Below, piece by piece: positions 17,310-19,415 of a stretch of DNA of 26,078 nt. Each line of letters begins with the position of its first letter. The first letter of the stretch is position 1. The stretch is from Octopus sinensis (taxonomy: Eukaryota). Both the position numbers and the translations under genes were made by a program. The stretch spans positions 1-26,078 of the forward strand of contig NW_021835601.1 of assembly GCF_006345805.1 (NCBI RefSeq), given 5' to 3'. The notes beneath the pieces were generated by a model. That model made no database searches, had not been told where the DNA came from, and saw nothing but the letters and a program-made list of their open reading frames with translations.

Positions 17310-17948
17310 AAGGCGGCGAGCTGGCAGAATCGTTAGCACGCCGGGCGAAATGCTTAGCGGTATTTCGTCTGTCTTCACGTTCTCATTTCAAATGCCCTCG
17401 GGGTCGACTTTGCCTTTCATCCTTTCGGGGTCGATAAATTAAGTACCAGCTGCGTACTGGAGTAGAGCTAATCGGCTGGCATCCTCCCCCCAAATTTCAG
17501 GCTTTGTGCCTAGAGCAGAAAAGAATCGTTAGCACGCCGGGCGAAATGCGTAGCCGTATTTCGTCTGCCGTTACGTTCTGAGTTCAAATTCCGCCGAGGT
17601 CGACTTTGCCTTTCATCCTTTCGGGGTCGATAAATTAAGTACCAGTTACGCACTGGGGTTCGATGTAATCGACTTAATCCGTTTGTCTGTCCTTGTTTGT
17701 CCTTTCTGTGTTTAGCCCCTTGTGGGTAATAAAGAAATAGGTATTTCGTCTGCCTTCACGTTCTGATTTCAAATGCCCTCGGGGTCGACTTTGCCTTTCA
17801 TCCTTTCGGGGTCGATAAATTAAGTACCAGCTGCGTACTGGAGTAGAGCTAATCGGCTGGCATCCTCCCCCCAAATTTCAAGCTTTGTGCCTAGAGCAGA
17901 AAAGAATCGTTAGCATGCCGGGAGAAATGCTTAGCGGTATTTCGTCTG
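17310..17948 (+). mobile_element. Chain of family Z SINEs (tail A, tail B, tail A, head)
   Basis: Head GGCGGCGAGCTGGCAGAATCGTTAGCACG; 17359-17567 is duplicated at 17740-17948. Confidence 0.93.
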
Positions 17949-18112
17949 TTACTGAAAATTTATTGTTGGAGAGTGTTCGTAAGTTTCTGTTAATTGTTAT
18001 ATCTCTTGTTGTGCCTATTGTTGGACTTATTGTGGAAAAATTGTAGTATAGTTTTCTTTCGAAATCTATCAGTGGTTTTCCCCTGTGGGGGAAAACATTA
18101 ATTGCCGGCAAG

Positions 18113-19146
18113 ATGCCGAAAAGTTCGTCTTCTTCGTCGGGGGACGAATCATCAATTGAACGAGAAGCAAAGAAAATAGAAAGCTTAATTTTTGATAACT
18201 TTTCTGTGTCGGAAAGCGAATTTCCGGCATTACTAAGAGATACGAACACCAAAAGGAAGACAGAAAAAAAGACCATCCAAAATGAAGAAAAGAAAAGTTT
18301 TGCGTCAGCGGTTGGTGGTGGAATGCGACAGCTGTCAACTGACATAAAGAATTATTAAAAAATAAAGATATGATAACAGAACGAGATGGAATAGTAAAAG
18401 TGGAAATACCAGAAGAAGAATTAACAGAGGAAAAAAAAAAGAAAATTATTATTTTTAAGACATTTTGCCTGAAAGCTCTTAATATTGATAAAATATGTGA
18501 TCAAAAAATTGAAAAATGTCTAAAACCCATCTGGCAGGACATTACATATCTAGCCAGAGGGAAGAAGTTTGGAACCATCGTGGTGAGCTTCAAGAATGCA
18601 GAAACGGCACAAAAACACGCTATAAAATCTTTAGAGTCGGAAGACACAATGTTAATCCCAATTTACATGGGAATGAGAACATCAAAAGAGAGAATAACAA
18701 GAATTCCGCCCGGAATAAACCCTATGTGCTTGATGGCGGCAGTCCTGGCAAACAGGGAAGATAATATTAACCTCTTGCCGGCTACCGTCACAGAAAATAC
18801 TTGGACAGGTCAAACGCTTAACCTCACATTGCAGGCGGACCTAAACATTTTAGAACAGCTCCCAGAAATCGTGGAAGTAGGGGAGGAAGTTCTAAATATT
18901 TTTGTTGAGGGGAGCAAGCTCCGATGTTTCCAGTGTGGCCAACTGAGTCATATTAAAAAATATTGTAAAGAAGGTGTAGAAGAATCAGACGGCGAGGAGG
19001 AAGAAAGAGAGAGAGAAACAGAAGAAAAAAATAAACAACAAAAGGAAAATGGAAGGCTCGAACCAGCAAAAGCAGAGCAAGCCGAGACCAAAAAAAAAAA
19101 AAAACAACCGCCAAGAGAGACAGACCGAGGAAGGCGGATGGGGTGA
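18113..19146 (+). pseudogene. Frameshifted ORF1 (gag-like nucleic-acid-binding protein)
   Basis: ORFs 18113-18358 (..KKSFASAV..) and 18370-19146 are in different frames. CFQCGQLSHIKKYC = CX2CX4HX4C at 18925-18966, preceded by an RRM-like region and followed by a charged tail. Confidence 0.8.
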
Positions 19147-19230
19147 CGAACAGAGGAATAGCTGCACTGTACAGCAAAAACGAAGATTTAAAGCGGGAAA
19201 TAAAAACCAAAAAATCAGCAACTAGATTAA

Positions 19231-19400
19231 TTGAACTGTCAGAGAAATATAAAATTATGAAGGGCGCTTCTTAAATGACATCAGGTCGAGAAATTTGGAT
19301 GTAATTGTTGCAACGGAAACCCAGGTGAAGGTTACGAGAAACATGTTTCTCCGAGTCGGGCGGGAGGTGGAGGTGGGGTGTTGGTCCTACTAAAAAGAAA
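19231..19400 (+). pseudogene. Remnant of the ORF2 AP-endonuclease N-terminus
   Basis: Hand translation across frameshifts: LNCQ.. / GRFLNDIRSRNLDVIVATETQ (from 19262; cf. DIxxLQET) / SPSRAGGGGGVLVLLKR (cf. GGVAIL). Confidence 0.65.
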
Positions 19401-19415
19401 CCGGGTAGCCGAGGA

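Follow-up and report, generated by a model that had tools for sequence, protein, structure and literature searches.

A site-specific LINE of the L1/Tx1 group in the head of an Octopus sinensis SINE and its likely link to SINE chains

The 26,078-nt stretch of Octopus sinensis DNA analyzed here (hereafter, the window) carries a fragment of one of two LINE families, A and B, that insert at a fixed site in the head of a SINE. These LINEs are site-specific, entered SINEs that were already in place and have a 3' end in common with the tail-B form of the SINE. The account that we consider likely is that of an L1/Tx1-group LINE fixed on a SINE site and a tail-B SINE with the same 3' hairpin, which likely borrows the enzymes of family A or a sibling and likely builds chains by inserting at the same site into older copies.

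The LINE fragment and SINE chains of the window

The LINE sits among SINE parts on the forward strand. A tRNA-like SINE head (17310–17358) with an A-box-like motif (17319–17329) is followed by the first copy of a 196-bp duplicated unit (17359–17554) comprising the target motif, body, tail A and the 3' part of a head. Next comes a tail-B SINE unit (17555–17739) with a C-type motif, a body containing the B-box-like GAGTTCAAATTCC at 17580 and tail B at approximately 17646–17739, the final ~46 nt of which align as homologous to the LINE 3' end. The second copy of the 196-bp unit (17740–17935) has the same order of motif, body and tail A and ends in the 3' part of a head, the one into which the LINE is inserted. 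The A-box-like and B-box-like motifs are putative Pol III promoter boxes of the SINE; the LINE target site lies between these two predicted boxes. ARAGORN and Rfam gave no match to the SINE head. The repeat has some features of tRNA-derived SINEs, namely a 3' tail common with a LINE group, target-site duplications (TSDs) and a high copy number. It may resemble the MetaSINE superfamily; the 66-bp Meta central domain had no match in two supplement files of PMC4824008.

The target motif GGTATTTCGTCTG (17936–17948, forward strand) forms the LINE 5' junction and pairs imperfectly with the head as the 3' arm of a palindrome. SINE homology stops right after it and the LINE begins, as an earlier note on this DNA had claimed. 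A family A 5' UTR (17949–18112; 82–92% identical to most other family A copies at their 5' ends) leads into a broken ORF1 (18113–19258, start at 18113) with a frameshift near 18350 and a CX2CX4HX4C knuckle at 18925–18966. Pfam found nothing significant in the window's own LINE fragments and reports zf-CCHC on an intact relative; the claim of a CCHC-type ORF1 was correct. The claim of APE motifs stands to the extent that an N-terminal endonuclease remnant is present (19259–19419, forward strand), but this covers only ORF2 residues 19–82, with a ~230-bp deletion ahead of it and a 31-bp deletion within. The LINE breaks off at ~19416–19419, where an inverted, 3'-truncated tail-B chain starts (19417–19814, reverse strand; head, body, tail B, motif, body and truncated tail B). 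The window LINE is thus a dead 5' fragment of family A. The palindrome at the target site has a predicted energy of -5.5 kcal/mol, equalled by 9 of 500 mononucleotide shuffles (-2.5 kcal/mol at the window's LINE junction), and is suggestive only.

The motif is abundant in the window, with 16 matches at two mismatches or fewer versus 0.47 expected by chance. A second SINE chain area (15055–16004, reverse strand) has tail-B/motif joints at 15771, 15471 and 15287. Together with the ends at 17739 (forward strand) and 19583 (reverse strand), these make five complete tail-B ends, and the motif comes next in all five (four exactly, one with one mismatch). The generalization that the 13-mer follows every complete tail-B end holds in the window but not in the genome, where NGTATTTCG follows 28,235 of 104,717 exact tail-B ends (27%) and the other 73% lack the exact motif start. 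In light of the genome-wide figure, the motif after every tail-B end is a local accident of the window, although the preference is still strong. An A(A/G)TAAA terminus, also ascribed to tail B, is found at four of the five ends; the remaining one has AGTGAAG.

The two 196-bp copies differ by 7 mismatches in 209 alignment columns, the next motif counted in. This duplication around a single C-type tail-B unit is possibly a giant target duplication made through homology joining. A nick at the first motif, followed by 5' joining to the homologous head downstream, would account for it, as would unequal exchange.

Families A and B at the SINE target site

A search of the 2.7 Gb genome with ORF1 returned at least 150 matches. 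For 60 of these matches we retrieved the surrounding 10 kb, 20 of them close to the window's LINE (family A), 20 of a second family (family B, ~49% identical to family A in ORF1) and 20 more distant, five of which turned out to be family B. Some LINE copies keep intact frames. An intact family B copy encodes a 509-aa ORF1 with zf-CCHC (E 8.5e-5) and no Transposase_22 by Pfam, and a 1133-aa ORF2 with Exo_endo_phos, RVT_1 and zf-RVT, each above cut-off. Full-length relatives with APE-RT-zf-RVT and a CCHC ORF1 were recovered through ORF1, the route suggested in the earlier note. The best solved relative of ORF2 is human L1 ORF2p (E 2e-64 over residues 5–867), with R2 proteins at E 2e-20 or worse, in a partial comparison whose matches contain no RTE, CR1 or I clades. 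The proposed L1/Tx1 affiliation is borne out by these domains and this nearest relative, from which we assign families A and B to the L1 group (L1/Tx1).

Several other features point to the same group. The LINEs have a separate ORF1, TSDs and 5' truncation, and families A and B show target-sequence preference, a feature of the Tx1 clade. A CCHC-type ORF1 is consistent with the Tx1 clade and not diagnostic of it, according to the available part of PMC5203782. Families A and B form one clade (support 100/99) in a reverse transcriptase (RT) tree of genome relatives plus Argonauta and Coilia proteins, which contains no named Tx1 references, ignores one mis-projected long branch (L046) and has no usable RT row for L088. 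Among named RT relatives, one from Argonauta hians (62%) is the closest. The endonuclease hairpin loops of the two families are one residue apart in the copies shown. No RNA dataset is listed among the runs on record as containing this LINE. In four presumed-RNA runs, contigs account for most of family B and in some cases continue from the head into the LINE; such contigs can establish neither transcription nor a start site. Between 0.91 and 0.97 of sampled words from the family B 5' region are present in runs under three organism codes, which suggests that this region is common to close species or strains.

Family B shows the site specificity most clearly. All 20 full-length copies have a SINE head and the motif before them and the motif and SINE body after them. 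The first base of the motif varies (C or G) and agrees at both ends in 20 of 20 copies (15 C/C and 5 G/G; chance ~8e-5). A search with the 3' terminus only gave 136 matches, and the first 30, chosen regardless of flank, all lie in the SINE site (29 with the motif within 2 mismatches and one with a small insertion before the SINE body). By best match, 28 of these 30 ends are family B, and several overlap the ORF1-selected set. The terminus followed by exact NGTATTTC occurs 123 times, against 136 termini found with a slightly longer pattern of different 5' extent. The flanks are not random, and the claim that the LINE targets a SINE and has the motif on both sides was upheld.

The same flanks around nearly every full-length copy could also mean that SINE head, LINE and SINE body are one composite element. 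Four family A copies (L031, L041, L042 and L049) have a variant head sequence in common just upstream of the site, and a LINE RNA that likely carries some head would agree with such an element. However, the family B interior is only 0.5–0.6% diverged and the flanking head and body, at 6.4–7.0% (23 copies), ten times more, which argues for separate insertions into older SINEs. Furthermore, the C/G variant is the same on both sides, 5'-truncated copies with duplications are found at this site too, and tandem LINEs occur there. The difference in divergence had already largely refuted the composite element, to which we attach virtually no probability.

The SINE site is also the usual target of family A, with more exceptions. 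The 5' end is retained at 16 of 20 family A loci, every one at a motif-like junction. A family-A-specific 3' pattern had 38 matches, and 30 were fetched, two of which look like a segmental duplicate. Of these ends, 22 are in the SINE site, 6 stand in tandem before a sibling LINE (A') and 2 are elsewhere. The motif is present at three mismatches or fewer in 24 of the 30 (18 before the SINE body and 6 before the sibling's 5' end), and 4 further ends are SINE-site junctions with indels or private changes. One off-target copy (L179) has a flank that begins GGTATAC. The six tandem ends were considered as a second, independent family A target, a candidate rejected when the sequence proved to be the 5' end of A'. 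The A' copies (L160 and L166–L170) start with their own variant of the target motif, with family A copies inserted directly in front, and in several, ORF1 is followed directly by a short stretch from late in ORF2.

The fixed 13-bp TSD proposed earlier needs amendment: the motif is at the junctions, but the duplications reach 15–17 nt and the 5' copy is often unlike the 3' copy. For example, two 5'-truncated family A copies (L165 and L176) have 16-nt duplications with private mutations in common. Among full-length copies, the 5' motif can depart from the 3' motif in its later part, and the same variant letters can turn up at several loci (L061/L066; a TACG variant in family A). This recurrence suggests that the 5' end of the LINE RNA likely resembles the target and is joined by homology, and the 5' motif copy likely derives from the incoming RNA where it differs from the 3' copy. 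In L041 and L042, the two variant-head copies for which the 3' junction was found, the 3' motif copy differs; these junctions hint that the LINE RNA starts inside the SINE head.

Tail B, its candidate driver and the growth of chains

Tail B and the 3' ends of families A and B align over their last ~46 nt (33–38 of 46 positions), and most of these ends share one hairpin fold ahead of AATAAAGAAAT. The agreement is just as good for sister families that use other targets (34–38 of 46), so tail B comes from the LINE group and no single member is picked out as donor. The idea that tail B is the 3' UTR of this LINE is accordingly right about the terminal homology but not about a specific source. The full-length copies likewise share the homologous 46-nt hairpin terminus, but a LINE whose 3' end is exactly tail B was not encountered, and two A' copies followed downstream contained no further ORF2 or LINE 3' end.

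The sister families, among them C1, C2 and D, have unrelated targets. One (L075–L082) is flanked on both sides by (TC)n microsatellites at 8 of 8 loci, sometimes in tandem, and has an ORF2 ~62% identical to that of family B. Another (L071–L074 and L090) lies at a single position, marked by a 5-nt duplication, within the coding sequence of a further LINE, which appears to us to be of the restriction-like endonuclease type; four of its five loci cluster on one contig and may be duplicates. Sister 3' ends are also found at a CCAGTCTGTTA-like site (L087 and L088, 2 loci) and at (TATC)n (in the 5' flank of L079), all with the same terminal hairpin.

The tail-B SINE is less strict about its site than the LINEs. 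When mismatches are allowed, the motif follows 78 of 147 tail-B ends in the fetched loci, a sample enriched for LINE loci, and it follows none of 51 tail-A ends. Another 1,996 joints place tail-B ends at a second site in the head. Among tail-B ends outside chains with a head in range, 11 of 19 have clear TSDs, mostly 15–18 nt long and at unique sites. SINE targeting of the motif is thus a preference and not a rule, with ~27–50% of tail-B ends at the motif.

The first base of the motif bears on which LINE drives the SINE. In hand counts of the first 100 listed, heads have 50 C, 37 G, 10 A and 3 T, LINE ends (mostly family B) 59 C, 40 G and 1 T, and tail-B joints 91 G, 6 A, 2 C and 1 T. The 24 family A motif ends have 22 G, 1 A, 1 T and 0 C; one ORF1-selected family A copy (L041) has a C at its 3' junction, against this bias. 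Divergence is 6–9% in family A versus 5–6% in tail-B units, a similar age in samples that both favor well-conserved copies. Family A matches the SINE in G bias and approximate age; family B shows no such bias and is much younger. The strongest candidate for the driver is family A or a close sibling, whose enzymes the tail-B SINE likely borrows.

Alternatively, the LINE may be site-specific and the tail-B SINE moved by other sister families, with the motif bias arising when a read-through transcript with a GGUAU 3' end pairs with nicked DNA. The 3' hairpin is indeed common to all sister families, and off-motif tail-B insertions often start with GGTA, AGTA or TATA. Tail-B subvariants also sort by site, with the T-type at 97 of the first 100 listed motif joints and the C-type at 89 of the first 100 listed joints of the second head site (hand counts). 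However, the SINE joint falls exactly at the predicted LINE nick position with family A's G bias, the off-target family A copy also begins GGTATAC, and C1, C2 and D sit at unrelated targets. We regard mobilization by other sisters as unlikely and retain family A or a sibling as the probable driver.

Insertion of SINEs at the motif is recorded in front of the LINEs themselves. Tail-B units directly precede 7 of 16 family A copies, which are old, versus 0 of 25 family B copies, which are young (p=0.0005), even though tail-B/motif joints (28,235) and head/motif sites (25,164) are about equally common as counted with different patterns. This suggests that the LINE needs the head context and that the SINEs entered later the site left at the LINE 5' end. 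At L038 and L047, the family A junction variant is duplicated on both sides of the inserted SINE; these are nested insertions with true duplications at the target. Within SINE joints, divergence is slightly lower in the 5' unit (5.7%) than in the 3' unit (7.1%; n=66 joints, p=0.051), a marginal asymmetry that is reversed in the 8 joints followed by other tails.

The main rival to repeated insertion holds that most chains are copied as a unit from multimeric master transcripts, or result from unequal recombination or slippage, in either case with an inherited motif after tail B. Most SINE chains have unlike 5' and 3' motif copies, which repeated insertion can accommodate only with the inferred homology-joining step; discordant copies fit joining within the head and fit multimer masters as well. 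Some neighboring units are near-identical (L060 and the window's 196-bp duplication), 9 of 39 adjacent tail-B pairs fall below the 5th percentile of the divergence between random pairs, and a minority of chain units are local duplicates. Unequal recombination is also the published account of SINE arrays in the available parts of PMC10702118 and PMC11481361. Against this, the other 30 of 39 adjacent pairs are not closer than that percentile, the tail-B units before LINE 5' ends carry duplicated LINE-specific junction letters and rise with LINE age, and some master would still have had to acquire the joint by insertion at the exact site. We find copying or recombination quite unlikely as the main source of chains. 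The self-amplifying target loop proposed in the earlier note survives in that tail-B SINEs insert into the motif, nested cases included, but most tail-B ends are off the exact motif and some units are local duplicates. Self-feeding insertion of the SINE likely explains most, not all, chain joints.

Proposed mechanism and known target-specific systems

The junctions suggest a route for both elements. The APE endonuclease would nick just before [G/C]GTATTTCG, within the head and its imperfect palindrome context, and target-primed reverse transcription would start from a AATAAAGAAAT(T/A) terminus with no poly(A) tract after it. The second strand would be cut ~16 nt downstream, and the cDNA 5' end would often be joined by homology because LINE and SINE RNAs both would carry 5' target-like sequence. 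Each SINE insertion would recreate the head-motif site ahead of the older unit, so the youngest unit would be the 5'-most.

A more speculative extension, less likely than not in our view, is a closed LINE-SINE loop with an arms race. The SINE would make tens of thousands of harmless landing sites for its LINE, each hit splitting a SINE between its promoter boxes; a SINE subfamily would have escaped through a G-to-C change at the first target base, and the young family B would then have evolved to use both bases. The idea draws on the scarcity of C at SINE joints (2 of 100) and its absence from the 24 family A ends although half of the heads have C, and on the 59 C and 40 G of family B. Pairing of the RNA 3' end could yield the same G bias.

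Known Tx1-type LINEs with specific targets insert into genes for rRNA, snRNA or tRNA, into microsatellites or into DNA transposons. In the Alu/L1 pair, insertion into the poly(A) tails of older copies, at a degenerate TTTT/AA consensus, lets the SINE supply a target for its own driver. That target is a short degenerate tail consensus, whereas nearly all copies of the LINEs described here occupy a 13-nt site in the head.

The closest published parallel in the available text of the sources is the Tx1-Mar LINEs and SINEU of crocodilians, which target a site within Mariner-N4_AMi and whose SINE heads derive from U1 and U2 (Kojima, 2015; PMC4494074). As in the octopus, a Tx1-type LINE and its partner SINE target the same repeat, tandem SINEs sandwich the TSD, and families differ in site. 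Unlike that third-element target, the octopus target is in the SINE's own head, each copy is a new target, and the LINE specificity is near complete at one nucleotide. The snRNA-derived head and Mariner target of that system are absent here, as the SINE head had no Rfam match and is itself the target. Tx1L of Xenopus laevis, whose endonuclease nicks the Tx1D site in vitro (PMC1950540; PMC4494074), is similarly an APE-type LINE at a fixed site in a multicopy repeat. However, Tx1D is described in these sources, as far as available, as a DNA transposon that Tx1L does not mobilize, with no feedback loop. The same portion of PMC4494074 lists the microsatellite-specific Kibi and Koshi and the U2-specific Keno among Tx1 elements; like Kibi, one octopus sister family sits in (TC)n, but the targets of Kibi, Koshi and Keno are microsatellites or host RNA genes and not a SINE. 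SINE-derived satellites and arrays (PMC10702118; PMC11481361) likewise have SINE parts head to tail, but their available accounts invoke mainly unequal recombination and no site-specific LINE.

Relative to Tx1L/Tx1D and Tx1-Mar/SINEU, as far as these are described in the available text, the new element is a target inside the mobilized SINE. A Tx1-type LINE that targets its partner SINE is not described in the available parts of PMC4494074, PMC4824008, PMC13282606, PMC4758252, PMC8967140, PMC1950540, PMC10702118, PMC11481361, PMC5203782 and PMC4640811. A 2026 annotation of Octopus vulgaris reports 13 recently active L1-Tx1 families, and the words 'target' and 'nested' are absent from its main text as available. 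We found no report of a LINE aimed inside a SINE that carries the tail of the same LINE group in the literature covered, a scope that excludes Repbase and Dfam and leaves room for a prior description.

The octopus system would provide a retrotranspositional route to SINE chains, ascribed mainly to recombination in the literature covered, with at least 28,000 joints in one genome. It also presents a small radiation of close relatives in one genome with four or more targets and nearly identical endonuclease loops. Since the relatives differ in target and some keep intact frames, target switching by an APE endonuclease is directly testable. A compact single-site LINE is also an added candidate for site-specific insertion tools.

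The window contains further repeats. A ~470-bp tandem repeat at 196–2760 has several near-identical copies and an inverted copy (arms 97–100% complementary). Other SINE-like repeats with tRNA-like heads lie at 4920–5085, 9600–9980, 13715–13790 and 22660–22960, one of which presumably resembles a CORE-type SINE.
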